A DNA stretch of 64,000 nucleotides from Protoeuglena noctilucae. Lineage: Eukaryota. The translations under genes and the position numbers were made by a program. Location of the stretch: contig OY253670.1 of assembly GCA_958009085.1 (NCBI GenBank), positions 1,550,001 to 1,614,000 on the forward strand, given 5' to 3'. Of this stretch, positions 45,583-63,385 are shown in pieces (position 1 is the stretch's first letter; each line of letters begins with the position of its first letter). The notes below the pieces were generated by a model. That model ran no database searches, was not told where the DNA came from, and saw only the letters and a program-made list of their open reading frames with translations.

Positions 45583-45630
45583 TGCCGCTGCCGCTGCCCA
45601 AACGACAAATGTACCCCTAACATGGGGGGT

Positions 45631-45858: not shown

Positions 45859-45878
45859 ATTATAGTTGACGAAAATCT

Positions 45879-46808: not shown

Positions 46809-46861
46809 ATATGAGCTTTAAAAAACCTCAACCAAAAATGAGGCCGAAGGCCTCTCGGGGT

Positions 46862-49800
46862 TTAAGGGGACTTCGTCCCCTTCCTGTTGCAAGCCAGGCA
46901 GGCAATCCCACAGTTTTCTTTCGTGTGACCGAGGTCGTCATCTGTGCGGTCCAGAGTCCATGTCCCCTCCTGATAAAAGTCAGCACCGCAATGCCTGCAC
47001 CGGAATTTGTCAGCTTTCAAGAGAGCCCAGATATCCTCGGACGTGATTGTGGTCTCTTGGTCACGCGTCCTGTCCTGTCGCGTGTACCCCACAACCTTGT
47101 CCCGAATGTATGCTTTCAAGTTCAAGAGAACAGAGCTGATACCCTGAACGAGATAGACTTTATCGAAGTCCCTCGCTCGTGTGATGGCCATGTACAATTC
47201 TTCACATCCGACGAACGTGGTGCTCACACCATGGACATATAAGTTTCCGCTCGTACGAGACCCCTGACAGCTGTGAATGGTTACCATATTGGACGACTCA
47301 AAGTTCTTGTGGAACTGGTCTACTTTAATTTTCTGAATCACACCGTCTTGTCCTTGCAGTTCCACATGGGACCCGTCATTAGACACCATCAAGTACTCTG
47401 CATTCCTAACGAATTTCCCAGAAGACCTCCCAGAACTCGGTCGATAGGTCCAAGTGTCTGGAGCAGCTATGTTCGTCCCCAACGATTGAATGCACTTGAA
47501 CGGACATAGATGTAGTCCATCACGTGCGAGTGCCTCGTCCTCGGACAACAAGCGCTTCTGTGTCATAAACCACTGAATGCACGCTCTCTTGTCCTTGCGC
47601 TCTACAAGCATCTCTCGTAGCTCTTTGAGTAATGGCTTCTGTGATTCCGGTAGGGTTTTATTTTCATGCAGGTATACCCTATTTTTGAAAACGCTCTGCA
47701 TGAGCATCCCGACTGCATCTCGGGAATATCGGGTGTCCTGGACCGGCTTCAGCTGGTCGATATCGCCGGTCATGATTAGGGTGTAGTCCCGGTTCACCGC
47801 CTCCGTGGCCATTTCTCTTAATGCCGAGGTACAGAACAGAAACGCTTCCTCGAGGATAACCATATTTGCGTCAGGAGGTACGTTGCGAGTAGCTTTGCGG
47901 TTGATGACCGGGAGCTCCCACCACTTGTGCGAGGTCGTGAAGTGGACGTCTATAGAATCGTCTTCGAAATATCGCTGACAGTCCAGCTTGTTCTTGTTGT
48001 TGGGGCAAACAACCACGATGCGCTTCTCTTGACAGTACTTCTTGACGTAATCGACCCAGAGCCGTGTCTTTCCGCTGCCGGCGTAGTGCGCTTGGATGCT
48101 CAGCCTATTATGTGATTTCAGTATTTCGTGGATTTGTCCCGTCATAAGTTCCGTGTCGTACTCTTGTTCCTTGGTGAACTCATGGGTGATCCATTTGTTC
48201 TTTTCCTTGAATTCTGGAAGATTCGGAGGACTTAGGTCCATAGGATTCGCTTTGATTTTTCCTCGCTCTGGCAGCTTGTATGAGCCCAGTTTTCCGTCAT
48301 ACTTGATGTTTGGACGTTCACGGAAATACACAGCATCTGTCTTGATGGCCACTGGCTTGTATCTCAGATTTTTGTGCATGAACGTAGCGACATTTTCAGC
48401 GGCAAGCTCCTGAAGGACTGCCCAAACGCTGTGCTTCCATCCGTTGAGGCAAACCTTACGGTCCTCGTCATACACGATATTCAGGTCAGGGTCTCCTGAC
48501 AATTTGAGTCTTGGGTTATCCTCGATTACCTTGTATGCGCTCATGGGGTCTTTGAACAAAACACCTCGCTGCGCCCTTGTCCTCGACCTTCCAGCCATAC
48601 CAATAGCCATGTTGACGATTTTTTTCACGTCTTTTAATTTCAGGGTCGTATCCTGGAGTGCATCTTTGTATAACCAGTCGATGACTGCGGCGACTCCCTG
48701 AATGCGCGCTGTATACGCCGTCTTGAGTTCTCCGACGATTCTGATGGGGGGCCGTAGGCCGGTTGGACGTTCGTCCTCCCTGTCGAATAATTTAGCCATC
48801 CTCTTGAGTACACTGCCGAGACATAGCGATAGTTCCTTTCGGTAATACACTTGCTCCGAGAACCAGAATAACTGAGTCTTGTCCAACTTGACGACGTACC
48901 AAGCAAGGTCATCCGCATCTTCTACGCGCATGTCGACGCTATAGAAGTGGTCGCTCGAGCATGGTACAGGAATTTCCATGCCTTCCATTGACTTTAGAAT
49001 ATATGTGTAGTGCTTGCTAGCGTCGCATTCCCAGAAATCACCGTCGATTCCATCACGGAGGGATTCTGAACTACCCTCCCCCATACATCGTTTGATACCG
49101 AACTTTCGGAGGCGGTCAAACACGTCGAATACGTCTTGGTTAACCTCGCATCTTGTCGTGGAACAGAGTAGTCGTTTGAGGAGTTTGTCCTGGGCGTTTT
49201 TGTAGTCGATTTCATGCTCAAGACTGTACCTCGGTTCGGTAATCTCGTCGCACTCGACCATGGACTTCACTACTATCTTTTTGTTGTCTACGTGATGGAA
49301 CATGAATTGGTTGACTTGTCCATTCTGTAGTATAAGGGTAAACGGGACGGCAAATGGAACCACGTTTTTAAGCGCTCCGATTACGTCGTGGGTATAATAG
49401 GTACCAGGTTCGATGCTGTTCAGTTCCTGGAGACTTTCAACATATTTCCAGGGAATCACTTCCTTAATTTTCGTGGGAGCCCACTCGATTTTCTCAGGTG
49501 CTTTCGCTGCAGGGAAGTCGATTTCTGGGGCGAGGAAGTCTTCGATAGTCTTCGCGTGCACATTCTCTGTAGCCCGCTTCGTGTGCCACGCGGGACATAT
49601 GTGGCCGTCATGGACGATAAAAGTCAAGCGTCTAATTTCCTTGTTCTCCCGCTCTGCTTTGAGTTTGAGTACAACGCGACCAAAGATATTGAAAACCACC
49701 ACATTAAATCTCTTGGCCAGCAATTGACACCCCTCGAGCAATCTAACAGGCCCATCCGGGAAATTCTCACTCACCCACTTAAGGTGGCAGGTGATGTTTT

Positions 49801-50383
49801 GTTTTGCCTTTTTTGAACCAGAATTCTCAATCGCACGTAGAATCTGATTTTGAACCGAAGACTTGAAACAGCTTCCTTCCTTGAGGTCGAATACGTTGTC
49901 AGAGTCCTTGAATCCCAGGGGGTTCACGTGGTTAATAAATACGCTCTTGTCCCTGGACACCGCCTGCTCGAACCATAGCTTATAGTCGCGTTCATGTGGG
50001 TTCACCTTATAGACAGAAACAACGTCGATGAATACCATTCCTCCGCTGGTTGCAATGCTGCTTAAATTCTCAAAGAGGTCTGGATTTGATTTCTCGATGA
50101 GGTTTCTAAACCTCTTAGCTGATTCAGTTTTCGCATTGTTGAACTCGAATTTCTCTATTTTGGGAGCAGGGTCTTTAACAAACATCCGGTAAGGCGTCTC
50201 GTTCATTTGAATGAACCAGCCTTTGAAATGTCCAAATCCACGCCGAATCGTGTTATTTTGCAAGTGCTGTTCAAAGTACTCGAGAACGTTATGGCCTCGC
50301 TTGTTCTTCGTGTCGATGTGATGACGCATCTTCTTGACAGTAGCTCGTAGCTCATCGTAAGTTCTTACCTCTTTTCCGGCCAC
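46862..50383 (-). CDS. Replication polyprotein: divergent family-B DNA polymerase fused to SF1 helicase and C-terminal HNH/Zn domain
   Basis: PolB-like motifs A (CDASKHY), B (KKIVNMAIGMAG) and C (IKTDAVY). Helicase motifs AGSGKT, VILEEAF, GDIDQLKPV, TIHSCQGS and YMAITRAR. C-terminus CRHC..TLDRTDDDLGHTKENCGIACLACN. Confidence 0.85.
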   Translation of the reverse strand: MAGKEVRTYDELRATVKKMRHHIDTKNKRGHNVLEYFEQHLQNNTIRRGFGHFKGWFIQMNETPYRMFVKDPAPKIEKFEFNNAKTESAKRFRNLIEKSNPDLFENLSSIATSGGMVFIDVVSVYKVNPHERDYKLWFEQAVSRDKSVFINHVNPLGFKDSDNVFDLKEGSCFKSSVQNQILRAIENSGSKKAKQNITCHLKWVSENFPDGPVRLLEGCQLLAKRFNVVVFNIFGRVVLKLKAERENKEIRRLTFIVHDGHICPAWHTKRATENVHAKTIEDFLAPEIDFPAAKAPEKIEWAPTKIKEVIPWKYVESLQELNSIEPGTYYTHDVIGALKNVVPFAVPFTLILQNGQVNQFMFHHVDNKKIVVKSMVECDEITEPRYSLEHEIDYKNAQDKLLKRLLCSTTRCEVNQDVFDVFDRLRKFGIKRCMGEGSSESLRDGIDGDFWECDASKHYTYILKSMEGMEIPVPCSSDHFYSVDMRVEDADDLAWYVVKLDKTQLFWFSEQVYYRKELSLCLGSVLKRMAKLFDREDERPTGLRPPIRIVGELKTAYTARIQGVAAVIDWLYKDALQDTTLKLKDVKKIVNMAIGMAGRSRTRAQRGVLFKDPMSAYKVIEDNPRLKLSGDPDLNIVYDEDRKVCLNGWKHSVWAVLQELAAENVATFMHKNLRYKPVAIKTDAVYFRERPNIKYDGKLGSYKLPERGKIKANPMDLSPPNLPEFKEKNKWITHEFTKEQEYDTELMTGQIHEILKSHNRLSIQAHYAGSGKTRLWVDYVKKYCQEKRIVVVCPNNKNKLDCQRYFEDDSIDVHFTTSHKWWELPVINRKATRNVPPDANMVILEEAFLFCTSALREMATEAVNRDYTLIMTGDIDQLKPVQDTRYSRDAVGMLMQSVFKNRVYLHENKTLPESQKPLLKELREMLVERKDKRACIQWFMTQKRLLSEDEALARDGLHLCPFKCIQSLGTNIAAPDTWTYRPSSGRSSGKFVRNAEYLMVSNDGSHVELQGQDGVIQKIKVDQFHKNFESSNMVTIHSCQGSRTSGNLYVHGVSTTFVGCEELYMAITRARDFDKVYLVQGISSVLLNLKAYIRDKVVGYTRQDRTRDQETTITSEDIWALLKADKFRCRHCGADFYQEGTWTLDRTDDDLGHTKENCGIACLACNRKGTKSP

Positions 50384-50567
50384 TTTCTCGAGGACATCGA
50401 AGTCAGTCTCGTCGTGCTCGGATATCCAAATATTTTATGCCGTATCGTAAATGGTTCGTTTGCGCTGCTTTTCGTTCTTGCGTTGTCTACGTGCGTGTTT
50501 TTGTTGAGCAATTCTCTCAGCTCGCGCGACTTGCTGGCGGATGGTACGGGCTTTGGGCATACCATGT

Positions 50568-50593
50568 TGGAGAAAAATCTTTACGGCGTTTTT
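50568..50593 (-). promoter_or_regulatory. Second start-proximal motif AAAAACRCYGTAAAGMTTTT (putative viral promoter)
   Basis: It recurs before ATGs at 62409 and 62912, and the core recurs before 45858. Confidence 0.6.
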
Positions 50594-50648
50594 GGCCGCG
50601 CCTGGAACCGATGGGGCCTTCGCCCCGTATTTTTTCCAAAGTTTTCGT

Positions 50649-50960
50649 ATGGAGCTGAAGATAACCAAAGCGACCGCAAAAGGAAAGAAGTATCGAGCTG
50701 AATTCCTGAGAGCTGGAGACCATCGGCCTATGGCCACCGTCAACTTTGGGGCAGAAAATTATCAGGACTATACCCAACACCATGACACTAAGCGTCGCGA
50801 GGCGTATCGCGCGAGACATAAAAATGACCGAATTGATGACCCCATGACTCCAGGAGCTTTGTCGTGGTACATACTTTGGGGTGATTCGACGAGCATGGAA
50901 AAGAATGCCAAAGCCTTTGCCAAGAAATTTAATTTAAAGCTAATGCCTCTTGGGTTTTGA
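50649..50960 (+). CDS. Tlr6F-like conserved PLV/virophage protein
   Basis: KKYRA..VNFGAENYQDYTQHHDTKRREAYRARH..TPGALSWYILWG pattern. Confidence 0.8.
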   Translation: MELKITKATAKGKKYRAEFLRAGDHRPMATVNFGAENYQDYTQHHDTKRREAYRARHKNDRIDDPMTPGALSWYILWGDSTSMEKNAKAFAKKFNLKLMPLGF

Positions 50961-51131
50961 CTCCTTAGCAAGAACGGTGTTTACATAAAACTGTGCCTTC
51001 CGTTTCATGATGTCCCCGTATGTCGAGTTTTTCGCCAGTACGGCCTTCGCAAACTTCTTGAGGTCCGCTTCGCCATCCTTCTTTTTAAACCCGTATTTTT
51101 TCGCAGCAGCAGTAAACGTGCCTTCCTTCAT
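50940..51131 (-). CDS. Small basic hypothetical viral protein
   Basis: MKEGTFTAAAKK..LKKFAKAVL..KRKAQFYVN. It is preceded by the TTTTCAAAAGTTATAC-ATG motif shared with other viral genes. Confidence 0.65.
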   Translation of the reverse strand: MKEGTFTAAAKKYGFKKKDGEADLKKFAKAVLAKNSTYGDIMKRKAQFYVNTVLAKESKPKRH

Positions 51132-51220
51132 GTATAACTTTTGAAAACGAATGTCGCCGTAGGCGCCTGCAGGGGTTAAAGGGGGCAGCGGCGGAGCCGC
51201 GACGCACGTAGTGCTGCCCC

Positions 51221-54200
51221 CTAATTGATGAAGTCTGTGCTCATGAGAACGCACCCGATGTGGATGGTGTCTATCTGATACCCAGAATTGCTATTCACAA
51301 TGCTAATATAAGGGGGATTGCCTGACCCGTCGGGACTGATAAGCTTCACATCCTGTGGCCAACTAATGTTGCCCGATGTGAATATCTGATACACCCACTT
51401 AGCGATAACGCTTGGCCCGCTGTTGGGGAAACTGAGCGATGGACTTGAGCTATATTGTAGGTACGTGAGTAGACTGATATACAGGTAATCATTGAGTTGA
51501 TTTCTGACATAAACAGTATTGTTATCTGGGGAAATCTTCACGATTCCTTCACACATATAAATATTACCCACGGCGTCTTGACCAGAGCCATACGCGTATA
51601 TCTTCCATATGCCCGCTGACAAGTTGCTCAAGTCGTTGACAGGGAAGCTGACATAATTGCCGTTCACCGGCACATCCAGTCTGTAATACTTATTCTTCAG
51701 CAGTCCTTGGAGAATGTTGAGGTACTTCACGTTAAGCTGGGTACACCTGAATGTCCCCTCACAAGCAGCTGCGAGTCCTACAGACGAGGTATTAAAAACG
51801 CTCAGTTTCGAAGTAAAATTCCCAGCTGAGTCTTTGACACCGAGGTTTACCTGTGCCGGTCCATACGTACTCGAACAGTCAATATTAAGCTGCCCTCCTA
51901 CTGTCTGGTCAATCCCATACGAGTCTCCAGCAGCATATGTCTTGACTAACATGGCTGGGTTATTTGCAGTGTACGTGATTGGCGTGGCTGTTGTGAAGTT
52001 TCCGTTAACCGTCAAGGCTTGGGTAGTCGTACTCGAGTTGCATGTGACCGTGCTGTCAAAGTTGACACTTCCGTTAAATATTAGAGACCCAGACAGCGTA
52101 GCATTAGAATTGACATTTAGGAACCCGCCGTTAGACAACGAAGTGGACAAGGCATTAATTTGCGCTTGAACGTCTGATGTAAGTCCTTGACAATAAACGA
52201 TATAGCTTGGCAAATTGCTTATGTCCGTCCAGGGGAGCGTTCCCGACAAACTCCCGGACACTGTCAGTCCACCTGTAATCGTACAGCCTCCCGCATTTAC
52301 CCCTAAGATTTCCGTGCCATTGTTTTGGAAACTCGCTATCTGTGCCCCACCGTTCGTATTATTCGCCGTGAAAACCCTGGCTGTAGAACTTGCCGTGACA
52401 CCCGTGGCGGCGTCCGAGCGCATGAACTGGCTCGCGTTGAGGCCCTGTAGCGTACTCGCGTCGCCGACGGATGTGACCGTTTGGGTCGTGGTTGTATTGT
52501 ACACGATGTTATTGACGAGGTCAACGGTACTGAAGTCAGGGGTCCAAGCGTCATTGACATAGTAGTACTGAACCACATTGAGCCCTGTTGTCGGAGTGGG
52601 GATGGTTCGGACATTGTTCCCCGAATTGTTCTGCTCGGTGATTTCGTATACAAGGTTCGGCTGGAGAATCAAAGTCTTCTGGAGATAATTTCCCGTACTT
52701 GGATTCGGTAGCGGCAGCGTGGCCTGCATGGCCTGGTTATTGTACCCCCATGTGACCAAATACGGTTGAGTCGTGTTCGTTGTCCAAGCATCTGGGTCTG
52801 TCGTTAATCCTACGGAGTAATTCCCGTTTCCGTCCGAAATGAGTACACTCGACTGGTCAGTGGTCAGAAAACCGCTGAAGTATAGGTACCCGTTTTTAGC
52901 ACGCATGCTGTAGTCTGAGATAGTTAAGTGGCCAGTGTTGACGCTGAACGGAATCATTGTATATTGCCACTTTCCCGTGGAAGTGTTCAAGATAAATAAA
53001 GGGTTTTCTGTTCTTGTAGTTCCGAGTGTAGGATTCGTCACGAGGGACGTTGTCCCGTCCATATTGTGCATGGCACTGCCCGTCACAGCTGTACCGGTAG
53101 AGTAAATATCGAGATACATCAGACTGTTTTTGGAATCGTACCACATGCGCCTATTGGCTGCGCCATAAAACGTCGTTTGGAGACCGTAAGCATTGAACGC
53201 AGACACGAACTTAAGCACGGTTCCAGTAGGCGTTATATTTAAGATGTATCCAGAATACGTGTAATTATTCGTAGCTGTGACGCCATTGACAGTAAGGCTT
53301 GAGTTCGTGCTTTGAAAACATACCCATAGATTCGTCCCATCGCTTTCGAGTTGAGGGAAATCGGTCCCGCCTACATTCACCTGGACTAAAGTCCGGACGA
53401 AGTTGCCAGCCGCGTCGTACATTAGAACCACGTTGTCATTCCCATTGAGTGTGATAGAGTTCCCAGAGCTTGCGTTCGTCGAAAGGTTATTAATCGTCAA
53501 TGTCACCGGTGAAGTACTAAGAGCCACCCACATGCCGATGTATAAATTATTCGAACTGTCCACCGCATAGCCTCCGAGGTACAGATTTTGACTGGTAGAA
53601 GTCAAGGCTATGGGATTGGCCATAACTTTAGTCCCACCAGTCTCATTGACTGCTATAATCGCCGTGTTGTATCCACCTCCAGCCGGCAGATACAGCTGGT
53701 TTGGGGAGGAGGAATTTCCTTGACTGGAACATATGGTGGTAATTCCCACCAGTGCGTTGCTACCCCATAACATTTGTGCCGATTTGTACCAGTATTGAGA
53801 ACTCGTACCTCCCGTAGTGTATACAGTATTATATGAAAGTAAAGCGCCAGTTGTAGGGTCATGGACGGTATACATGGTGAAATCTAAGTACGTTGTATAT
53901 TGGTTCGAAGCCACCAATGTAGTCCCGTTATAGATATTAACACCAGCGTTTGCCTGAATGTAGAAGAAGGCCATGATGTTGCCGCTCGGCATAACCACGA
54001 GCCCGTCGAACTCGATAGCAGTAGTAGTCGGGGATTGAACAGGCGCACAAGCCCATCGGAATTGTCCTGTAGCTGTGTAGCTGACAATGTAAGCCGTTCC
54101 ATACGTGTTATTGATGTTTGACAGCCGGAAGCTCGTCTGTGTTCCATCGAGATTCGTGATATACGTGTTAGGCGTGTTCTTGTTGTTGAAGTTCATATTC

Positions 54201-54595
54201 GCGTATATGTTGAGACTCGAGTCCGTGTCGATGTACGCCAGGCCTCCATGAGTTTGATCGGTGACGGGATTGGGCGCTGTCTGACATATCCCGTAAAGAT
54301 TTGGTTTGAACCCTACTGGTTGAGTAATTCCAGGGGCGAAGTAGGTGTCTTGTGTCAAACTTAACGTGGCGTTGTTTGTCGTAATCGTTTCTACGTCCAA
54401 ACTTTGGACACCTGATAGAATCGTTCCAGTTGATAAATGTCGGATACTCGGAGCAGTTCCGTTGTCCGTATATGCCTGGGAACTCGGAAGCCATCTGTCA
54501 TACGCACTGTCGTGTACCAACACGTCTCCATTGGAAGCGTTTGGGGTCGAAAGTTCTTCTTGAAATGTCCGGTACCATGAACCGTTCCAACTCAT
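51221..54595 (-). CDS. Large fibre/receptor-binding-like virion protein
   Basis: About 1120 aa, rich in T/N/S/G. Propeller-like repeats (IDTDSSLNIY, AVDSSNNLYIG, SDGTNLWV) and a tail-fibre-like motif GDASTLQGLNASQFMRSD. Confidence 0.7.
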   Translation of the reverse strand: MSWNGSWYRTFQEELSTPNASNGDVLVHDSAYDRWLPSSQAYTDNGTAPSIRHLSTGTILSGVQSLDVETITTNNATLSLTQDTYFAPGITQPVGFKPNLYGICQTAPNPVTDQTHGGLAYIDTDSSLNIYANMNFNNKNTPNTYITNLDGTQTSFRLSNINNTYGTAYIVSYTATGQFRWACAPVQSPTTTAIEFDGLVVMPSGNIMAFFYIQANAGVNIYNGTTLVASNQYTTYLDFTMYTVHDPTTGALLSYNTVYTTGGTSSQYWYKSAQMLWGSNALVGITTICSSQGNSSSPNQLYLPAGGGYNTAIIAVNETGGTKVMANPIALTSTSQNLYLGGYAVDSSNNLYIGMWVALSTSPVTLTINNLSTNASSGNSITLNGNDNVVLMYDAAGNFVRTLVQVNVGGTDFPQLESDGTNLWVCFQSTNSSLTVNGVTATNNYTYSGYILNITPTGTVLKFVSAFNAYGLQTTFYGAANRRMWYDSKNSLMYLDIYSTGTAVTGSAMHNMDGTTSLVTNPTLGTTRTENPLFILNTSTGKWQYTMIPFSVNTGHLTISDYSMRAKNGYLYFSGFLTTDQSSVLISDGNGNYSVGLTTDPDAWTTNTTQPYLVTWGYNNQAMQATLPLPNPSTGNYLQKTLILQPNLVYEITEQNNSGNNVRTIPTPTTGLNVVQYYYVNDAWTPDFSTVDLVNNIVYNTTTTQTVTSVGDASTLQGLNASQFMRSDAATGVTASSTARVFTANNTNGGAQIASFQNNGTEILGVNAGGCTITGGLTVSGSLSGTLPWTDISNLPSYIVYCQGLTSDVQAQINALSTSLSNGGFLNVNSNATLSGSLIFNGSVNFDSTVTCNSSTTTQALTVNGNFTTATPITYTANNPAMLVKTYAAGDSYGIDQTVGGQLNIDCSSTYGPAQVNLGVKDSAGNFTSKLSVFNTSSVGLAAACEGTFRCTQLNVKYLNILQGLLKNKYYRLDVPVNGNYVSFPVNDLSNLSAGIWKIYAYGSGQDAVGNIYMCEGIVKISPDNNTVYVRNQLNDYLYISLLTYLQYSSSPSLSFPNSGPSVIAKWVYQIFTSGNISWPQDVKLISPDGSGNPPYISIVNSNSGYQIDTIHIGCVLMSTDFIN

Positions 54596-54682
54596 ACATG
54601 AGCTTAGAAAACACTTCATGAAAGAGCCACCCGGAGGGGCGTCCCCCTCGTCGCAAGCTCTTCCATGAATTTTTAAAGCTGT

Positions 54683-55093
54683 ATGAGTATGGAATCAGTT
54701 GCACAGACACCGACCATTGACCGCCACCACCACACGTACCGCGTCGTGGTCAGGTTCCCAGCAAACACCAACACCGCGACCGTACACTTTCGACCCATCA
54801 ACCGGTCTGCTCCGAGCAACACCCCCTGGGCCGTCATCGTGGAAGAAACACCCGGCCTCCCCACCGACTGCTTTGTGTCTTGCTCTGATATAGTGCAGTA
54901 CCATACGATAGATTCCGCCACGGACCAACCCACGCAGGTCATCGGAAGCTTTAAGAATCAACCTGGAAACCCCATCCCTATCAACCCAGTAAGCGACACG
55001 TATATGACGTTTAACCTGACCACCGTTGATACTGGAGTAGCGTACACTACGTCCCACTCGGGCTGCGCTGTAGTGCTTCGATTCTTGTCTTAG
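54683..55093 (+). CDS. Hypothetical beta-rich viral protein (possibly penton-like)
   Basis: 136-aa ORF with beta-strand periodicity. Confidence 0.6.
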   Translation: MSMESVAQTPTIDRHHHTYRVVVRFPANTNTATVHFRPINRSAPSNTPWAVIVEETPGLPTDCFVSCSDIVQYHTIDSATDQPTQVIGSFKNQPGNPIPINPVSDTYMTFNLTTVDTGVAYTTSHSGCAVVLRFLS

Positions 55094-55143
55094 GGGGCAG
55101 CGGCCCGTCGCGCCTGCGGCGCTTTTTTTTTGGAAGCTATTGT

Positions 55144-55608
55144 ATGATTAGCCTCAAGAATCCCGACGCCGCCGAGGGGCACAACCAAGACGTAGAACCA
55201 CCGAGCAGCGGCGGAGCCGCGACGCACGTAGTGCTGCCCACAAAGGACGATACTGCGGCCGCAGGGGGGTCCAAGGGGGCCCCTTACCATAGACTTGCTA
55301 ACTTGCAGAAAGCAAGAGAGGCAGTCGCGCTCAGGAAGCAGGCGAAGCAGGAGGAGCAGTCTCGTCTTCAGTCCCTTAAGGAGCGTGAAAAAACACTCAA
55401 GGACCTTGAATATCAAGTGAAAGAGCAAGAACTTGCTACCCGCGAAAAGGAATTGCTCGCGAAACTGAATACTCTCAACGCTTATGATTCCCACGTAGTT
55501 CAGAGAGCCGACCCTTTGATTCACGATAGACGCGTGAATGAAGTGAAACGCGAGATTGAGACCGCTCGGAAGACTAATAACGTACGGGGGCTAATTTCCT
55601 ATTTCTAA
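55144..55608 (+). CDS. Coiled-coil hypothetical viral protein
   Basis: LANLQKAREAVALRKQAKQEEQ.. heptad-like pattern. The N-terminus includes hairpin-derived sequence. Confidence 0.7.
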   Translation: MISLKNPDAAEGHNQDVEPPSSGGAATHVVLPTKDDTAAAGGSKGAPYHRLANLQKAREAVALRKQAKQEEQSRLQSLKEREKTLKDLEYQVKEQELATREKELLAKLNTLNAYDSHVVQRADPLIHDRRVNEVKREIETARKTNNVRGLISYF

Positions 55609-56523
55609 TTTCCGATTTCCGAATTCGAACCCTTTGTTCAGGTTTATCCTGAATCTCGTGTCTTCTGGTTCATGAAGTAGTCCAACAAAGCAGTTATGAA
55701 TATTATTCGACACTGCTTCGACCCACATTTTTTCGAATTCCGTCGGCGTCACGGCGTGTCCGCACAGAGTCTCCGAGAGGTCTTTTCTGATTTTCGGATA
55801 ACTGCACCTGAAAAGAGCGAACATATTCACCATGGCGCGCAACGAAGGTGGAATCGTCTGTGTCCAGGATTGGCTCGAAACAAACACACTGCATCTTCTG
55901 TGCCGGAGCGTCGTAATAAAGCGATTGAACCCGTGATTCATGTGCGTGCTGTACACTTCCGAATTGCCAAGCATATCGTCACACACGAGGCAAAATGTCG
56001 GTTTTCCCAAGGGGTATTTTTCAGGAGGCAGAAATTCGAATCTTTCGAGAAGCAGGATTTCATCCGGTTCGAACCTTCCCTGCAAATCGGTATATTTATA
56101 TCCGGATTCCTTTAAGACCTTCATGTATCGTTTCCAAACGCTGATATATTTCTGAGTCAGCTGCCAGTCTTCCAGTTTGGTGTCTATAAACGTCTCGATA
56201 TCGTGCAGGGGGAAATCTGTGCTATAAAAGACATCTTGCAGGTATCCGTCTTCCAACGCTTTTGACAGCACGTGCTTGACCTTAGCGTCTCGCGTCGACG
56301 TGCTACTGCACCAAAACACGTAGTCATACGTGCGGGTCCTGAAGTATTTGTCGAGATAATTTAACAAGAACGTTGTTTTCCCGGTGCCTATCGAACCAAC
56401 GATGTACCCGAATTGGAACTGATTCCCGACACCAACAGCAGGGAGTCCTTTAGGCGCTTTCCGGGGGTTTTCTACGTCATCAGGTATCATTCGAATTTCC
56501 AAGTCACCAGCTATGTCTCTCAT
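55591..56523 (-). CDS. A32-like (FtsK/HerA) genome packaging ATPase
   Basis: Walker A GSIGTGKTT, Walker B LVCDDM, LRHRRCSVFVSSQ and IPPSLRAMVN. Confidence 0.92.
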   Translation of the reverse strand: MRDIAGDLEIRMIPDDVENPRKAPKGLPAVGVGNQFQFGYIVGSIGTGKTTFLLNYLDKYFRTRTYDYVFWCSSTSTRDAKVKHVLSKALEDGYLQDVFYSTDFPLHDIETFIDTKLEDWQLTQKYISVWKRYMKVLKESGYKYTDLQGRFEPDEILLLERFEFLPPEKYPLGKPTFCLVCDDMLGNSEVYSTHMNHGFNRFITTLRHRRCSVFVSSQSWTQTIPPSLRAMVNMFALFRCSYPKIRKDLSETLCGHAVTPTEFEKMWVEAVSNNIHNCFVGLLHEPEDTRFRINLNKGFEFGNRKLEIGN

Positions 56524-56632
56524 AACCTTTTTACAAAAAAGGTTGACCAAAAATGGGGGGACTGCGTCCCCATCGGGCTATGCCCTACACCCCCGCGGCG
56601 CTATGTTTTGTTAACTTTTTCAAAAGTTATAT

Positions 56633-56851
56633 ATGATACTCGAGGACCTCGTGGACGCCATCGTTAACAAGTACAGCAACTTAGATCACCTCATTGCAAC
56701 CGCTCTTGTACGCCAATGGGCCCGAGACGCTAATGTAGAGCTTGTTTCAAAGTTCAAAGTGCCGGAAGTTCAGGGTGATGACGAAGTTAGTGTTAGGGAG
56801 CAACAGAGTTCCGTCACTATCAGTGAGGTAGATACCGATGCAGTTGAGTGA
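56633..56851 (+). CDS. Small hypothetical viral protein
   Basis: 72-aa ORF directly after the TAACTTTTTCAAAAGTTA motif. It overlaps the 3' end of the penton gene on the opposite strand. Confidence 0.55.
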   Translation: MILEDLVDAIVNKYSNLDHLIATALVRQWARDANVELVSKFKVPEVQGDDEVSVREQQSSVTISEVDTDAVE

Positions 56852-57454
56852 ATTCGTTTCTTCATCGACAATCAGATGTGCGTCATCTTGCCTTCCATTG
56901 AAAACTATACCCTGACTATTTTTATCAGCCGAGATTGGTATCTCGGTTAACACGTCCCCTCTATCAACCCCTCCCATAGCGATAGAGGAATAACTTCTCC
57001 TAACGAAATTTGCATGAACCAGAATACTGGTCGTCCAGTTCAATAAAGGTGCCTTCTGTGCCTCTATAATAGTGCCCGCGGGTATCGTCAATTGTGTCGA
57101 GACCCCCAGCAACGGACTTGCAGATATGACTACACTCGAAAGCAGTGACGTATTTCTGAAAGACAGTCGATTACTTGCCGTGTTGTATTCGCAAAACAAA
57201 TAGGATAATGTGTTATTAGATATCCATGTCGCAAGGTCTTGACACGTAGCCTGGGTCATGTCAGGCACCGCATAAGTGACACCTTGAACTATGATGCTCT
57301 GAGGAAGTACATTTTTGCTGAAATCAATCTCGTTCATCGCGAAGGCCGCGCACCAACCTATCAAAGTCTTGGACTTGGTGAATTTCGGAACACTCCAAGT
57401 GTAATACCCTCCCGTGACAGTCGCGTCTTCCGAGCGCAGTCTGAGTCGCCACAT
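56747..57454 (-). CDS. Minor capsid protein (penton, single jelly roll)
   Basis: L.LRSED start, YNTASNRLSF, SILVHANFV, VLTEIPIS and IGIYLTDSDGTLL..FVITLNF, a pattern typical of PLV pentons. Located next to the ATPase. Confidence 0.78.
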   Translation of the reverse strand: MWRLRLRSEDATVTGGYYTWSVPKFTKSKTLIGWCAAFAMNEIDFSKNVLPQSIIVQGVTYAVPDMTQATCQDLATWISNNTLSYLFCEYNTASNRLSFRNTSLLSSVVISASPLLGVSTQLTIPAGTIIEAQKAPLLNWTTSILVHANFVRRSYSSIAMGGVDRGDVLTEIPISADKNSQGIVFNGRQDDAHLIVDEETNSLNCIGIYLTDSDGTLLLPNTNFVITLNFRHFEL

Positions 57455-57470
57455 ACAAATCTTTAGAAAG

Positions 57471-57501
57471 TTTTGTTAACTTTTTCAAAAGTTATATATA
57501 T
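57471..57501 (+). promoter_or_regulatory. Palindromic AT-rich start-proximal motif TAACTTTTTCAAAAGTTA (putative viral promoter)
   Basis: The same motif precedes ATGs at 56633, 57502 and 61085, with variants before 51131 and 56523. Confidence 0.65.
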
Positions 57502-59208
57502 ATGCCTCCCCAAGAAATACGCGTAAGTGCACAAAGCAACCTACAACCGTTTGACAGAGAAGACCTCGTGGAGCTATGGAATGATTTTGAAAAATCAAAC
57601 CCTGCGCTCATGAAGGCATTAAAAAATGCTTATCCAGGCAATGATAAATTTTGGACGAAGGGCGAGTGGCCAAGGGATAAGATGTACGCCCTTGTAGACA
57701 TTTTCAAGAGCATCGATTTAACCATAGGTCCAGACACAGACGCAAATTTCAACGTGTTGAAGAATCGGATTTATGACCTGCGGACATCAGCGTATTGTAA
57801 AAAAAATTCCAAAAAAATAGCTACAGAAAACAAACAGGTAACTTATACACGTCCTTTCAAAGGTGGTAATAGGTTTGTCGGTTACTGTATGCCGAAGGCT
57901 ACTGAAGGATTAGACGATGCAAGACAACAATTTGACGATTTTAGAAGACAACTTATTAACGAAGCCGTCGCAACCCCATTAGATATTGGGACTGCATCCG
58001 AGACTCAGATTGACCAAACACAAGCACAAGGGTCCACGTCGTATGCCGAAGGCGCTGGTAGCGCCGCCGGCGCTGGTACCGGTAGCGCCGAAGGTGCTGG
58101 GGGTGCCGGCGAAGTGGACTTAACAGACGACGACCGAAACGATATAGCTGCTTTCAACGTCAAGCTCAAGCAGTCAAATCCGGCGCTTTTCGATGAATTC
58201 GACGCCGACCGTAAAAGCCGAACGCGAGAAGACGACCCCTATCCTTGGATTCGGCTGATAAAAACTCTGCCCCCCAATGACCCCCTTTTAAAACCAGCTA
58301 CAACCATCTTGAATCGGCTGATGGGGTTGACCGTATCTGCACAAAATTCAAACACGATTACATCCACCGTTGAGATGATGTATAAGCGTCCATTCAGTCA
58401 GACGAGTCATCCAGTCGTTTACTTTGGGAAAACGAATGATATCTTTGATAAAAAGATGAACGATTTTAAGGTTCAGTTAGACAAAGAACAACATTACCCG
58501 CCTCAATCCAGAGCAGACCAATCGCCTGATTTGAAAGAGGGAGACACCCAGCCCAAGAAGGAAGACATCGACGCTTATAACGCGTTCATTCAACGGCTCG
58601 GAAACATCGACAGTGTCGTTTTGGCTCAGTTCACGTATGACATAAATAACAATATCGCATACGTAGCGCCTTGGCTCAAGTTGTCCAGGACTTTCAAGAA
58701 GTATCCTCAGTTTAACGATCTACAAGGATTTTTGACCGTACTAATGACACGCATGAAGCAATTGACCGCATCTAAACAGTTCTTCGATGAGGGGGTTAAG
58801 AACCTCATCGGGTACTCGACGACATACCCGATAGCTGGAGGGAATCTATCAGGTTATTACTATTGCAAGGACGGAAACCCAGAACTCATGGATGCAAAGA
58901 TAAGCAATATCACGCTTAATGCGACACTGCAACTCTCTGGAATCTATCAAATAGGGGGCGGAGCCCCCTCAGACCCCCAAATGGGCCCATCAACTTCGGC
59001 CACATACCCCAACCAAGCAGGGGGGACGAACGGGGTTGGACAAACGGGGGGCAGCGGCGCAGCCCAGGGGGGGTTGGGGGGCGCAGCCCCCCTGTATAAC
59101 ATATCCGGACCAGACCCCATGGCTATGACCATCCCGCTACTCGGACGCCCCTTGAGGTGCACCCGTGGGCAAAATGCTTATATGTGCTATAAATATGATG
59201 GGTCTTGA
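57502..59208 (+). CDS. Hypothetical viral protein with three diverged internal repeats
   Basis: 568 aa with three ~120-aa units separated by low-complexity linkers. Confidence 0.8.
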   Translation: MPPQEIRVSAQSNLQPFDREDLVELWNDFEKSNPALMKALKNAYPGNDKFWTKGEWPRDKMYALVDIFKSIDLTIGPDTDANFNVLKNRIYDLRTSAYCKKNSKKIATENKQVTYTRPFKGGNRFVGYCMPKATEGLDDARQQFDDFRRQLINEAVATPLDIGTASETQIDQTQAQGSTSYAEGAGSAAGAGTGSAEGAGGAGEVDLTDDDRNDIAAFNVKLKQSNPALFDEFDADRKSRTREDDPYPWIRLIKTLPPNDPLLKPATTILNRLMGLTVSAQNSNTITSTVEMMYKRPFSQTSHPVVYFGKTNDIFDKKMNDFKVQLDKEQHYPPQSRADQSPDLKEGDTQPKKEDIDAYNAFIQRLGNIDSVVLAQFTYDINNNIAYVAPWLKLSRTFKKYPQFNDLQGFLTVLMTRMKQLTASKQFFDEGVKNLIGYSTTYPIAGGNLSGYYYCKDGNPELMDAKISNITLNATLQLSGIYQIGGGAPSDPQMGPSTSATYPNQAGGTNGVGQTGGSGAAQGGLGGAAPLYNISGPDPMAMTIPLLGRPLRCTRGQNAYMCYKYDGS

Positions 59209-59752
59209 ACATGAGCTCGTTGAGATGAATCTCGGGTTTCCCGTATCGAAGGAAAAAATAGGCGATTGGCATCTCGTGTACTCTGGCGCGAATCATATCT
59301 TGGAATACCGTCGAAATGATGGTCTCAGTGCTATCATCTTTCGCGGAACAACTGACGCACAGGATGTCGTGGATGACCTAAGTCTTTATGTATCAGGGAA
59401 CGCGTTCAGCAGTCGTCTGAATGAAGCGCTGTCATATGCTTACAAAGTTGCTAAGACGGGACGCCTTGTAATATGCGTCGGGCATAGCCTCGGTGGTCTT
59501 TACGCTTTGAAGGTTCAAGAGATTTTATACCCCAAGTACCCGATTTGGGCGTGGGCTTTTAATCCCTTCGTCCCAGACGCCGTTTCGTTGCGTCTTAATC
59601 GCCGGCAGAAACTTTTCCTGAACATGAACGACCCGGTGTGTCGAATCACGTATCAATCTTGCGCAAACAGACCGGGTCGTGATGAGGCGAAGTGGGTGTT
59701 TTCTTGGGAAAATACGAGTACGTTAAATCACGGCGTGGATCAATGGCTTTAA
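59195..59752 (+). CDS. Class-3 lipase-like alpha/beta hydrolase
   Basis: IIFRGT, CVGHSLGG, AFNP, NDPV and a terminal NH. Confidence 0.88.
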   Translation: MMGLEHELVEMNLGFPVSKEKIGDWHLVYSGANHILEYRRNDGLSAIIFRGTTDAQDVVDDLSLYVSGNAFSSRLNEALSYAYKVAKTGRLVICVGHSLGGLYALKVQEILYPKYPIWAWAFNPFVPDAVSLRLNRRQKLFLNMNDPVCRITYQSCANRPGRDEAKWVFSWENTSTLNHGVDQWL

Positions 59753-59775
59753 AAATTTCTTTTGTTTCCTTAGAT

Positions 59776-60990
59776 ATGATGAAAATGCTTCCCGACCCGC
59801 TTGACTTTAAATGCGCGTCTCTAAACTCCGGGGTCAGCGTCTCTCAGGTGAAGGTGAGGTCCGACACCCAGGGTACTCGCACTGGAGGCAGCCAGGTCAC
59901 GTTCACGCTACCCACGGCAAGTCTTTTCGATCTCAAGTCGATGAAGCTCTGGTTCAATATCACGAACAATGACACAAATCAGTACATTACACCCCGAGTG
60001 GCAGACCATTTTATTCGACAGCTGACCGTTCAAGTGAATGGGTCGACGGTGAGTAACATCGAGTACTACGGGACAATTGCTGGATATCTACGCGACATGG
60101 AAGTATCCGGGTCTGAGATAAGCTCAAATGCTCTAAGTTACGAGCGCGCCATTGACGCAAGCTCAAATGCTCTAAGTTACGAGCGCGCCATTGACGCTTC
60201 ATCTTCTGCCAAAATTCCCGTGGATGGCTTTAAGTTCGGCTTCCTCTCGGGTGATTGGATGAGGTACCTTGACACTACTCTCTTCAAAAACGTGGTTATC
60301 ACTATCACGCTTGCCAACCCGTGGACGATTGCTGGACCAGCAACGCCGGCCGCTTTGAATAACAACAACGTTGTTTACACAGAGTGCTACCTCACTTGTA
60401 ACAACGTAGGCTTTAACGATGATACGTATCGCGCGCTACTTAAGGAAGAGGTCCAGAGCGAGAAAGGTCTCGACGTGTTTTACAAGAACATGCAGGTGTT
60501 TCCGTCAACTCAGTTCACCGGATCTATCGACTGGACTTTCCGCGTAACGTCCGGTTCGCTCGACAAGCTCTATGGACTTGTGAAGTACGTTGACGCCACC
60601 AAAGGTAACTGGCTGGCAACTTCCGGCACGGCTTTGAGTCCATATGCTAATTCGGTCGGTAACGCAGGACTAACGTACTACTATACCGTCGGAGGGGCTC
60701 GGGTCATTATGTACGATGCGGATGACCAGGAAGCCTTCAGCATTCTAAGGAATGCGGTTGACGTCAAGGCAACCAATACATACGCTACATGGTTGTCTAC
60801 TGATTTCTGTATGGCCACAACTCTATGCCTTCCTCACATCAAGTCAGGATACAACAGCTTTAACTCTGCCGTGGATATCATGCTTCACGTACAGGGACAC
60901 GACGCTTATACCAAGATTCTCCTGGCATGCGCAGAGATGACTTCGAATGTGAACCTGAGCGATACGAACGGCGTGACCATCCGGACGTAG
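59776..60990 (+). CDS. Major capsid protein (double jelly roll, PLV type)
   Basis: About 404 aa. The N-terminal pattern QVTFTLPTASLFDLKSMKLWF..FIRQLTVQVNGSTVSNIEYY is typical of PLV MCPs. The size and gene neighbourhood fit. Confidence 0.85.
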   Translation: MMKMLPDPLDFKCASLNSGVSVSQVKVRSDTQGTRTGGSQVTFTLPTASLFDLKSMKLWFNITNNDTNQYITPRVADHFIRQLTVQVNGSTVSNIEYYGTIAGYLRDMEVSGSEISSNALSYERAIDASSNALSYERAIDASSSAKIPVDGFKFGFLSGDWMRYLDTTLFKNVVITITLANPWTIAGPATPAALNNNNVVYTECYLTCNNVGFNDDTYRALLKEEVQSEKGLDVFYKNMQVFPSTQFTGSIDWTFRVTSGSLDKLYGLVKYVDATKGNWLATSGTALSPYANSVGNAGLTYYYTVGGARVIMYDADDQEAFSILRNAVDVKATNTYATWLSTDFCMATTLCLPHIKSGYNSFNSAVDIMLHVQGHDAYTKILLACAEMTSNVNLSDTNGVTIRT

Positions 60991-61084
60991 GGGGTAGGGC
61001 GGAGCCCATAGGCCTTCGGCCACCCCCTTAAACCCCCTTGGGGCCTTCGGCCCCTTAGTTTGTTAACTTTTCTAAAGTTATTAT

Positions 61085-61429
61085 ATGGCAGCATACACCC
61101 AGAAAAAACCATCTTTGTTTTACGAAGGGTATACCCCGTGGAACCAGAACGTCCCGAGATTCTCGGACCTGAAATGTTGGAAACTTCGGGAAAACCGGAC
61201 ATTGATTCCAGAAACAGACATCTCATTAGGGTACATGTATGCTAAGAAAAAGGGCTCGTGGCTTGACGACTATAAGGTTTGCGACGAAGGCCTCCGGCAT
61301 CCAAAACCTCCCCATGATGATGTCCGACCTACTGCACCCAAGTTCATTGTGCAAGCAGGAGACACTGGGACAAGTAAAGGTACGGGGAGTGAAATTTTTG
61401 TCATCAAAGATAACCGACCTAACATGTAA
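61085..61429 (+). CDS. Hypothetical viral protein
   Basis: 114-aa ORF after the TAACTTTTCTAAAGTTA motif and followed by a hairpin. Confidence 0.7.
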   Translation: MAAYTQKKPSLFYEGYTPWNQNVPRFSDLKCWKLRENRTLIPETDISLGYMYAKKKGSWLDDYKVCDEGLRHPKPPHDDVRPTAPKFIVQAGDTGTSKGTGSEIFVIKDNRPNM

Positions 61430-61525
61430 GAGGGGGCGTAGCCCCCTTAAACCCCCAATAGTGGTTTATTTTTGCCAGGCTCAAGACCGTCGCGGCTTCG
61501 CCGCTCTTTTTTCTGAAACACATAT

Positions 61526-62002
61526 ATGGACACAACAGGTATCGACCCGAGCATGGTCGCTTTAGAGTGGGAAGAACGAATTAAGACAGCGCACCCCATC
61601 AATCTACACGCTCTCATAGGATTGGCCATCAAGGAGTATCAAGCTTCTACGGTGGGTGACAAAGGTGCAGTTTTGGCTATCGTTCTTGAGACCATGCTGA
61701 GCGACCCTGATGGCGTTGGGCACCCCTGCTATGAGGACGCTCAGCGTGTCATGGCTCATGTGGGCCATCAACTGGATGCCTTCACGGACCACACTACGGC
61801 AATCAAAAAGCTGGCCAAACACGTGCGTAAGTCTGTTCCTAAAGACCGTTGGCTTCAGACTTTAAGTTTATGCATTAAGAAACTCGTGTCCGCTCCGCTC
61901 GCTAAGTCAACCATCGAAAACATCACCAAAGTTATCGAGACTGACCTGGAGAGCATCGCTCTGAGTGCATTACGACACGCGAGTCATTTCTTTCATTGCT
62001 AA
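61526..62002 (+). CDS. Hypothetical helical viral protein
   Basis: 158-aa ORF in the co-oriented gene run. Confidence 0.7.
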   Translation: MDTTGIDPSMVALEWEERIKTAHPINLHALIGLAIKEYQASTVGDKGAVLAIVLETMLSDPDGVGHPCYEDAQRVMAHVGHQLDAFTDHTTAIKKLAKHVRKSVPKDRWLQTLSLCIKKLVSAPLAKSTIENITKVIETDLESIALSALRHASHFFHC

Positions 62003-62107
62003 ACGAAGCGTAAAAAAGCTGTCTCTGGAACTCCTTAGAGCCATCCCAGCTGTGCTTATATTCACGTTAATGCACATCCATTGAAACTATTTTTATCTAC
62101 CTATGAT

Positions 62108-62368
62108 ATGCAACTCTTGATAGACAAACTTGAGGTAGCGAACATAGGCGTTCAAACCGGTGGCATTGTTGACCTCGATGCACCCGCAGTGAAGGTCGAT
62201 CTTAAGGACCTTCTCGAGTTGTTTGTCATGGAACTTCAGCTCACCGGAGACAATTCACCAGTGACGTTCGATGTGGTCAAGGGTCATCGTTCTTTCAGGT
62301 TTGTGTACAGCCCCGACAAGATTGACATTATTAAGAAGGCGGTCATGACCCTCGATAGACTGGCTTGA
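62108..62368 (+). CDS. Hypothetical viral protein
   Basis: 86-aa ORF with an AT-rich leader. Confidence 0.6.
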   Translation: MQLLIDKLEVANIGVQTGGIVDLDAPAVKVDLKDLLELFVMELQLTGDNSPVTFDVVKGHRSFRFVYSPDKIDIIKKAVMTLDRLA

Positions 62369-62408
62369 TGGAGAAAAACACCGTAAAGCTTTTTTGTTAT
62401 GTATTATT

Positions 62409-62807: not shown

Positions 62808-62911
62808 TTACTATTACTTCTGTTAAGCCGCTGCAAGCCGTAGCCCCTTCGGGACATATTTTTCAAAAAGCGTTGAAGAAAAACGCTGTAAAGCTTTTCT
62901 CCATCCTTATC

Positions 62912-63154: not shown

Positions 63155-63173
63155 CATTTTTATATCCTTTTTT

Positions 63174-63377: not shown

Positions 63378-63385
63378 TTTTGGGG

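Follow-up and report, generated by a model that had tools for sequence, protein, structure and literature searches.

Dispersed GC-rich triloop hairpins between and inside the genes of a polinton-like/virophage-like element integrated in Protoeuglena noctilucae

An integrated virus genome and its hairpins

This study concerns a family of short GC-rich hairpins in a 64,000-nucleotide stretch of the Protoeuglena noctilucae genome (assembly GCA_958009085.1, contig OY253670.1, positions 1,550,001 to 1,614,000 of the forward strand; the window, whose numbering is used throughout). Bases 1-45278 and 63691-64000 of the window are 63-71% GC, and the stretch between them, at about 48% GC, is an integrated polinton-like/virophage-like virus genome, which we call the element. 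It is bounded by an inverted pair at 45279-45558/63411-63690 (280 nt, 99%) and an adjoining pair at 45544-45582/63386-63424 (39 nt, 95%), and TGTT flanks it on either side (45275-45282; 63687-63696). When the element and one TGTT are taken out, a minus-strand host frame is open across the junction without stops; its pieces lie at 36702-45275 (-) and 63691-64000 (-), with 2857 aa on one side alone. The inverted repeats, the TGTT duplication and the restored host frame thus identify an integrated element that splits a very long host open reading frame (ORF). The element carries a dispersed family of tiny GC-rich palindromic modules, which occur in both orientations and whose presence varies among near-identical copies. 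Inside genes, the hairpins are read as Gly/Pro/Arg/Ala-rich stretches in loops, linkers or termini.

The hairpins were scanned for as perfect GC-rich stems of at least 4 bp around 3-nt loops, and the chance expectation was taken from 100 dinucleotide shuffles; the material was one element and its 45-kb host flank. The element holds 42 GC-rich triloop hairpins, 20 of which have a GNA loop (or its complement TNC) closed by C-G, against 0.69 +/- 0.82 in the shuffles, whose maximum was 3. In the host flank, 1 hairpin out of 172 is of this C-GNA-G/C-TNC-G type, against 9.3 expected from shuffles. Considering the excess in the element and the depletion in the flank, the hairpins are a feature of the element and not of the surrounding host DNA; likewise, no unit family has a copy in the host part of the window. 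C-GNA-G triloops belong to the d(GCGAAGC) type of DNA mini-hairpin, which is unusually stable. When folded with DNA parameters, the loci fold as expected, with z at or below -3.0 in 8 of the 16 folded loci.

The units are 11-48 nt long with stems of 4-10 bp, many of them inside an AGGGGG...CCCCCT clamp and some nested or double. Several recur as identical or near-identical copies: GGCC-GNA-GGCC occurs five times in the element and the module GGGGGCAGCGGC three times, and the 48-nt module at 45625-45672 is 90% complementary to 60990-61037, which is the same module in the opposite orientation. A 26-nt unit, AGGGGGC-NNN-GCCCCCT followed by TCAGA or TTAAA and then CCCCC, has three copies in the element. 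Those at 58953 and 63330 differ in the loop only (GGA vs TCC), and the third, at 61431, has the loop GTA. The original prediction had noticed this loop flip and concluded that the hairpins can invert. The flip itself is real, and one unit does occur in either orientation; however, inversion of the loop and insertion in the opposite orientation, either of which may equally be responsible, are not distinguishable. Minute inversions at hairpin loops occur in chloroplast DNA, and the flip resembles them.

One exact repeat is a 35-mer that had been noticed as common to an intergenic and a coding site. Indeed, the match between 51185-51219 and 55205-55239 has 0 mismatches, and none of the 100 shuffles gives such a match. 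At the first of these sites, the 35-mer makes up the core of a nested hairpin 43 nt long (51180-51222), and the clamp of this hairpin shares bases with the TAG stop of a gene for a fibre-like protein; the second copy lies in frame in a 154-aa ORF (o154). There is no third match in the window at up to 3 mismatches. A 33-nt core of the 35-mer, bounded by GCAGC/GCTGC, was found in a third context in three other sequencing runs, one of them labelled another organism, and the flanks around it are absent from the window. A box-C-like GTGATGA in the flank of this third context was dropped as a candidate feature, with 30 letters of flank at hand. An exact scan for the 33-nt core gave 0 matches in viral, metagenome and prokaryote genome collections, which seem to be without this element lineage.

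As for the carrier, the element encodes an rve integrase (Pfam E 1.5e-10) and a protein of 1173 aa that had been labelled PolB in the original prediction. Pfam shows in this protein a helicase domain only (AAA_30), but its AlphaFold model (pLDDT 78.8) matches in fold Pif1/RecD2 helicases (E 1e-12) as well as phi29 DNA polymerase (E 2.6e-8). It is thus a polymerase-helicase fusion. The C-terminal ~45 residues (46862-46990) carry a Cys-x2-Cys...His...Asn...Cys-x2-Cys pattern, nearly invariant in an alignment of 50 sequences, which we take to be an HNH-type nuclease finger; any link between this finger and the hairpins is speculation. In the N-terminal extension of this gene, the minus-strand codon 50435-50437 is an in-frame stop (DTA*NIW vs DTAYNIW in relatives), and position 50435 is A in contigs of another run and T in the window. 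This copy of the polymerase-helicase may be N-terminally truncated or decaying.

The other genes include a 1132-aa Asn/Thr/Ser-rich, fibre-like protein (stop at 51221-51223), a 310-aa ATPase with a weak AAA_22 match only, below the Pfam cut-off, and a protein of 415 aa, the Atlas model of which can be aligned to double-jelly-roll capsid clusters at TM 0.77-0.84. A 139-aa ORF (o139, 50541-50960) matches Pfam DUF5754 over residues 40-93 only (E 4e-16). Pfam scans of 13 element ORFs at E <= 0.01 and of 15 at E <= 1 (27 different ORFs) gave no match to a tyrosine recombinase, and a divergent one is still possible. The capsid gene contains a perfect in-frame 39-nt tandem duplication at 60120-60197 (SSNALSYERAIDA twice), at which contigs of another run break. 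A probable promoter motif is the 30-nt AT-rich repeat at 56605-56634, 57470-57499 and 61057-61086 (two exact copies, one of 73%), whose three copies each finish at a plus-strand ORF's ATG; another repeat, of 25 nt (62369, 62874), precedes two further ORFs.

The closest match for the carrier, but not for its hairpins, is the mid-GC class of endogenous mavirus-like elements (EMALEs) of a marine flagellate. In the main text of the paper that describes them, all mid-GC types have an rve integrase and a tyrosine recombinase (Hackl et al. 2021, PMC8547959). Our element agrees with that description in its GC content of about 48% (47-53% in the type) within a high-GC flank, in its terminal inverted repeats, in its rve integrase and in a long helicase ORF with a polymerase domain in place of a separate pPolB. 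It differs in the tyrosine recombinase, which Pfam did not find, and in its 415-aa polinton-like capsid. We call the carrier polinton-like/virophage-like for these two reasons, despite its likeness to mid-GC virophages.

Table 1. Positions of the element, of its hairpins and of the ORFs that hold them, in window numbering (a dot marks features without strand).
Feature	Positions	Strand	Description
Element, whole	45279-63690		18.4 kb, mid-GC
Left terminal inverted repeat	45279-45582	.	Inverted pairs; TGTT target duplication just outside
48-nt composite module	45625-45672	.	Outer G5/C5 clamp with mini-hairpins GGCC-GAA-GGCC and GGGC-TCC-GCCC; ~210 nt past integrase stop
Hairpin GAGGCC-GAA-GGCCTC	46840-46854	.	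7 nt past polymerase-helicase stop; fold -5.9 kcal/mol, z -3.6
Polymerase-helicase, 1173 aa	46862-50383	-	PolB-like/Pif1-like helicase/HNH-like fusion; hosts the in-frame hairpin of site A
Empty site B	47524-47527	-	Relatives carry a double hairpin here, net 27 nt, encoding GGRSPDGLRP
In-frame hairpin, site A	48746-48776	-	GGCC-TAC-GGCC on the sense strand; encodes part of ERPTGLRPP, in the polymerase part
GC island with imperfect hairpin GGGGCC-TTC-GCCCC	50594-50626	+	In frame, N-terminal part of o139; peptide WGLRP
Hairpin cluster	51155-51222	.	Spacer between convergent o139 (stop 50960) and fibre-like gene; fold -20.6 kcal/mol, z -3.4
GC-rich hairpins	55089-55125	+	Begin at TAG stop of o136, then T9; contain module GGGGGCAGCGGC
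154-aa ORF (o154)	55144-55608	+	First 50 residues largely three GC islands, remainder Lys/Glu-rich
Second 35-mer copy	55205-55239	+	In frame in o154; encodes SSGGAATHVVLP
GC-rich palindromes CTGCGGCCGCAG and AAGGGGGCCCCTT	55253-55284	+	In frame in o154
Hairpins GGGGAC-TGC-GTCCCC and GGGC-TAT-GCCC	56557-56585	.	Intergenic, upstream of ATPase start and of the promoter-like repeat
GC-rich palindromic linker AEGAGSAAGAGTGSAEGAGGAG	58045-58111	+	Joins repeated domains A and B in o568, the 568-aa ORF
26-nt unit, AGGGGGC-GGA-GCCCCCT and tail CAGACCCCC	58953-58978	+	In frame in o568; GGGAPSDP
GC island, partial GGGGGCAGCGGC module and hairpin GGGGGGC-GCA-GCCCCCC	59041-59095	+	In frame; GGSGAAQGGLGGAAP
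Hairpin cluster	60989-61054	.	Inverted 48-nt module from TAG stop, then CCCCCTTAAACCCCC and GGGGCC-TTC-GGCCCC; fold -21.3 kcal/mol, z -4.3
26-nt unit, GTA loop	61431-61456	+	1 nt past o114 stop
26-nt unit, TCC loop	63330-63355	+	In frame, C-terminal end of last small ORF (RGLRPLRPP), beside right repeat
Right terminal inverted repeat	63386-63690	.	Inverted pairs

Gain and loss of hairpins inside genes

The hairpins in the polymerase-helicase, o139, o154, o568 and the last small ORF are all in frame and introduce no stops. The out-of-context peptides that had been singled out beforehand are where they were said to be: ERPTGLRPP is encoded at 48746-48776 on the minus strand, within the 1173-aa ORF, and GGGAPSDP and GGLGGAAP are located in the 568-aa ORF. 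The latter (57502-59208) consists of three related domains (A-B z 8.8, B-C z 5.5), with its hairpins in the A-B linker and in the C-terminal tail. It has no Pfam match, and a protein homolog search recovers itself only; the idea that its GC-rich linker belongs to a collagen-like or other repeat protein was dropped, given the lack of a Pfam match. A homolog search with o154 finds an identical truncated copy only.

The polymerase-helicase can be compared among relatives. The test set was its 90%-identity cluster and the neighbouring clusters, that is, 22 further sequences from other contigs, with copies at least 83% identical. Relative to the window protein, these relatives have in-frame indels at four internal sites (5, 9, 14 and 2 residues) and an altered C-terminus, all Gly/Pro/Arg/Ala-rich. 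At site A, EDERPTGLRPP is found in 6 sequences, EAE-----GRP in 2 and GDDAAWAHGPA in 1, an 83% identical copy. At site B, EALA is followed directly by RDGL in 6 of the 11 aligned sequences that span it, and the other 5 have EALGGRSPDGLRPRDGL. At site C, most sequences run from MVS directly into NDGSH and 2 have MVGGGAPSGPHCSGFQRGETPY; this 14-residue insertion contains GGGAPSGP, nearly the GGGAPSDP that the 26-nt unit encodes in o568. Site D has EDDS--ID vs GGDATPLN/GGDTTPLD, the changed neighbouring residues being Gly/Pro/Arg/Ala-rich as well. The C-terminus has NR-KGTKSP vs NRGRGPLKPPC, and the latter variant matches a contig loose end at 46883. By comparison, the fibre-like protein, which is without a strong hairpin, has no indel among 8 copies.

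For site B, the DNA is available. In one DNA run and one RNA-library run, contigs follow the window to 47524 and then diverge for 30 letters, which on the gene strand form the two hairpins GGGGC-GTA-GCCCC and GGCC-TAC-GGCC and replace 3 nt of the window. Splicing out or bypassing of the hairpins was dropped as an idea, as nothing points to it, and the RNA-library contig (the library may contain DNA) retains the site-B hairpin. The window stretch was found in 10 runs from 4 studies. In IMG/VR there are no related loci for the polymerase-helicase or the ATPase, nor in JGI metagenomes for the ATPase. Two further irregularities among the contigs were not used: a joint 63332->51184 in the RNA-library run, which is probably a graph join via similar G5C hairpins, and a loose end TTCAAAAAAAA after 57835, which lies in an A-rich stretch.

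Aligning the polymerase-helicase with its homologs, the check proposed together with the original prediction, places the site A peptide as an insertion relative to 48 homologs. The LFDREDERPT residues are matched by 0-3 of these 48 distant homologs (17-27% identity), and the gap is repeated in all 6 homologs of a smaller alignment. In the predicted structure, site A is a 13-residue coil (534-546) of lowered confidence between a helix and a strand, and sites B, C and D are likewise placed by the model in short coils between secondary-structure elements. For o568, a reading of the hairpins as insertions would be by analogy with the polymerase-helicase, and capture of a spacer through gene fusion is a fair alternative there.

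Taken together, the presence and absence of the units among relatives, the units shared between sites and the third context of the 33-nt core indicate that the units are gained and lost as wholes and copied between sites. The earlier proposal that the hairpins are copied or inserted thus gains support, both from near-identical units at unrelated sites and from the indels among polymerase-helicase copies. Neither a dedicated transposase nor a target duplication for the hairpins was found by Pfam scans and inspection of the element in the window. We propose copy-and-paste in the course of replication or repair as the probable source of new copies, in which template switching or short-patch conversion would be seeded by the self-pairing stems. 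Inside genes, the survivors would then be those copies of frame-keeping length that fall in tolerant places.

Hairpins at gene ends

The second property of the family is its placement. By the gene map, the intergenic share between the terminal repeats is 8.4%, and it contains 13 of the 20 hairpins (binomial P 5e-10), or 7 of the 13 loci (P 3e-5). A hairpin lies 1-16 nt past the stop in 5 of 18 genes, namely those for the polymerase-helicase, the fibre-like protein, o136, the capsid and o114, and in 3 of these 5 the TAG stop passes directly into the G-run of the clamp (TAG-GGGG). For the integrase, o139 and o235, a hairpin is found 175-213 nt downstream, and the last small ORF has one inside its 3' end. 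The spacer after the capsid gene consists almost entirely of hairpins (60989-61054), which are followed by the promoter-like repeat. As we read the gene and hairpin table, most co-directional gene blocks finish in a hairpin.

This placement recurs outside the element. The extended motif AGGGGGC-NNN-GCCCCCT-YARA-CCCCC, with 23 fixed bases, is present in 35 IMG/VR loci. Of the 15 larger ones examined, 12 have it overlapping a co-oriented ORF's stop or at most 250 nt downstream of such an ORF (the exceptions are L006, L007 and L016). In four loci (26-29% GC, on contigs of 28-177 kb), the motif begins, with its first A, on the final base of a TAA stop. In L029, the ORF that ends at the motif is a ribonucleotide reductase large subunit, and L004 and L035 have ORFs of the same length and share the L029 flank (of these three, L029 was scanned); in L031, an RPB9-like gene ends at the motif with an E2 enzyme gene adjoining. 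The gene content of L029 and L031 is typical of giant viruses. The motif lies at 10001-10026 in both L029 and L031, and the low-GC (26-29%) loci listed further include L004, L020, L032 and L035; in the L029 group, more GC-rich palindromes come after the motif.

The motif is also found in 13 small IMG/VR contigs of 2.8-5.9 kb (L001 842-921, L002, L010-L013, L017, L018, L021, L022, L025, L030 and L034), several of which have tandem 27-nt copies. L001, the sole small contig examined for genes, encodes TT_ORF1 and TT_ORF2 and is thus anellovirus-like, with the motif in a GC-rich non-coding region. We take the motif in anellovirus-like contigs as convergence.

What could a hairpin do at a gene end? 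Hairpin-dependent polyadenylation is established for Mimiviridae (PMC4402537), and hairpin-type transcript ends are reported for the virophage Sputnik as well as for Mimiviridae (PMC4402537, PMC6723459). A 2026 preprint describes intergenic hairpins in many giant viruses and ties hairpins to repeat proliferation through replication slippage. In our material, the sequencing runs were compared as contigs, from which depth, strand and transcript ends are not readable. One metatranscriptome contig starts with 13 unmatched T and then matches the window from 62848, beside a CCC-GAA-GGG mini-hairpin (62840-62860); a minus-strand transcript from a related copy may have its poly(A) end at this start.

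By analogy with these systems, we propose that the main niche of the family would be the 3' end of genes and gene blocks, with the clamp often starting at the stop codon. There, their most likely role is that of transcript-end hairpins serving a helper giant virus's transcription machinery, and the copies inside genes would be ectopic by-products. The account as a whole, that is, a virus element as carrier, a hairpin family, its spread by copy-and-paste and its role at gene ends, appears to us probable, though well short of certain.

Several points weigh against it. First, 13 of the 18 genes have no hairpin near their stop, nor does the convergent pair o154/ATPase; the hairpins are therefore not an obligatory terminator. 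Second, the RNA data are contigs, in which the sole hint of a 3' end is the 13-T contig at 62848. Third, site B has 30 nt in place of 3 nt, which is not a clean insertion, and no target duplication or fixed footprint was seen. Fourth, the polymorphisms were observed mostly at the protein level, with DNA for one of them only, 30 nt in length, and their direction, insertion or deletion, is polarised by outgroups at site A only. Fifth, the in-frame position is partly a survivor effect, considering that out-of-frame copies would break the ORFs used to call genes. Finally, one element and 45 kb of host flank are the whole sample, and no o154 homolog without the hairpin was found in the databases searched, so that insertion in o154 is argued by analogy.

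Alternatives, known systems and meaning

Four other explanations can be weighed against this account. The best of them, which we nevertheless think unlikely, holds that the hairpins are purely gene-end signals and that the copies in ORFs were captured by gene fusion or by moved stop or start codons, without any insertion. It would account for the strong enrichment of hairpins at stops, for the 568-aa ORF with its three related domains and its GC-rich palindromic A-B linker and C-terminal tail, for the N-terminal hairpins of o154 and o139 and the C-terminal one of the last small ORF, and for one related polymerase-helicase whose different C-terminus reads through a GC-rich element. However, sites A-D lie inside conserved domains of the polymerase-helicase, where sites A-C vary within the 90% cluster and site A also in the 83% copy; spacer capture cannot yield such variable internal sites. 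Moreover, the exact 35-mer in a spacer and in the interior of an ORF, together with the third context of its core, implies copying between sites.

It is less probable again that the hairpins are cis-acting replication or nicking sites, such as internal origins or priming sites for the PolB-like/Pif1-like/HNH protein, kept by selection on DNA structure. The exceptional stability of C-GNA-G triloops as DNA mini-hairpins would suit such a role, as would the tandem copies of the extended motif in the GC-rich non-coding region of small anellovirus-like contigs. The 83% identical copy has a peptide of equal length but different sequence (DAAWAHGPA) at site A, in a stretch that is otherwise conserved, which would fit conservation of structure; this variant is, however, known as protein alone, from which palindromicity is not readable. 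For other endogenous virophages, a preprint puts forward terminal palindromes as primers of replication. Yet the present hairpins cluster at gene ends and not at termini, and their presence varies among near-identical copies, the window itself being without the hairpins of sites B and C, which does not befit essential cis elements.

We give very little weight to a host origin, in which the GC-rich insertions would be endogenisation scars made after integration by GC-biased repair or filler DNA. The GC content of the host flank (63-71%, vs about 48% in the element) is in its favour, and the EMALE paper argues in its section 7 for nucleotide-level GC shifts in such elements (PMC8547959). But hairpins of this type are scarcer in the 45-kb host flank than expected (1 vs 9.3), the 45 kb of host DNA checked hold no copy of a unit family and the window has no 33-mer elsewhere, and free viral contigs, low in GC, have the extended motif. 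A chance effect, low-complexity sequence or an artefact of assembly can hardly be the explanation: short GC-rich palindromes are common in GC-rich DNA and De Bruijn contigs break at these repeats, but the counts were unreached in 100 shuffles, the stretch is present in 10 runs from 4 studies, and proteins with and without the insertions are predicted on independent contigs.

How do the hairpins compare with known palindromic repeats? Rickettsia palindromic elements, which Ogata and co-workers reportedly described in 2000, are said to be dispersed palindromes between genes and in frame inside genes, translated as extra loops that leave the fold intact. They are ~100-150 bp long, belong to a bacterial genome and vary in presence between relatives. 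The present family shares with them the palindromes between genes and in frame, the extra loops and the variation in presence; it is dispersed, keeps the frame in genes and, in the polymerase-helicase, forms an insertion that is absent from homologs and lies in a predicted coil. It differs in the length of its hairpins (11-48 nt), in being GC-rich in a virus genome of lower GC, in its GNA triloop and in often abutting stops. In size, against the length just given for the bacterial repeats, and in sequence family, these units of a virus integrated in a eukaryote fall outside the Rickettsia palindromic elements proper. The double-hairpin elements of fungal and algal organelles have two adjacent mini-hairpins per unit. 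Built alike are the 48-nt module (45625/60990) and the insertion of net 27 nt at site B, but the double-hairpin elements, which are also cited in PMC4478555, are organellar and of unrelated sequence as far as could be told. The likeness to these two groups that had been suggested at the outset thus stands as a fair functional analogy, but not as membership.

Yeast mitochondrial GC clusters are short GC-rich palindromes whose mobility is inferred from population polymorphism (Wu & Hao 2015, PMC4478555). The two families are alike in being GC-rich palindromes in a genome of lower GC, polymorphic, merging into composites and without a known transposase (PMC4478555). They differ in that the clusters are organellar with a reported target duplication; our units sit in a provirus integrated in nuclear DNA, and no duplication was seen around them. 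[quoted passage not shown]

Mimivirus hairpin signals are longer than the hairpins described here and come after most genes. They should also be AT-rich, since giant-virus genomes are over 70% A+T (PMC4402537). The signals that follow the 'hairpin rule' of Mimiviridae and Sputnik (PMC4402537, PMC6723459) resemble the present family in being palindromes directly after genes and in a giant-virus parasite; here, 5 of 18 genes have one within 16 nt. Our hairpins differ in their GC-rich composition and their 4-10 bp stems, in that 13 of the 18 genes have none after them, and in that they also occur inside ORFs. On virophages themselves, the literature on hairpins, palindromes, GC-rich repeats or polyadenylation yielded nothing on such elements. 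The EMALE papers (the main text of PMC8547959 and a second paper, supplements excluded) make no mention of hairpins, palindromes, stem-loops or terminators, and a preprint on another flagellate reports terminal 52-nt palindromes only.

The comparison with other viruses invites a wider reading, which we offer tentatively and consider rather doubtful: GNA-triloop hairpins with G5/C5 clamps and a TTAAA/TCAGA-CCCCC tail might be portable cassettes for gene ends, common to the giant viruses of protists and to the polinton-like or virophage parasites of these. Each cassette would bring stop codons (TAG-GGGGG...CCCCC-TAA) and a transcript-end hairpin, would spread by copy-and-paste within and perhaps between co-infecting genomes, and would rewrite protein loops, linkers and C-termini as a side effect. 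This reading is suggested because the exact extended motif sits at the stop codons of giant-virus-like contigs.

The evidence supports the view that the hairpins are selfish or semi-functional palindromic mini-repeats that enter coding sequence, with the GNA-triloop signature and the placement against stop codons as their notable traits. With this case, the phenomenon of selfish palindromes within coding sequence, known from bacteria and organelles, reaches a eukaryotic provirus. It also calls for caution, as Gly/Pro/Arg-rich stretches in these proteins are DNA-level passengers and not functional motifs. At the same time, gain and loss inside genes is a fast and cheap source of variation in protein loops and C-termini in these viruses. 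Endogenous virophages and polinton-like viruses are under study as inducible defences of protists against viruses, and little is known of how they are regulated; a gene-end hairpin family would help to reveal the way in which such elements are transcribed and the helper virus that does so.

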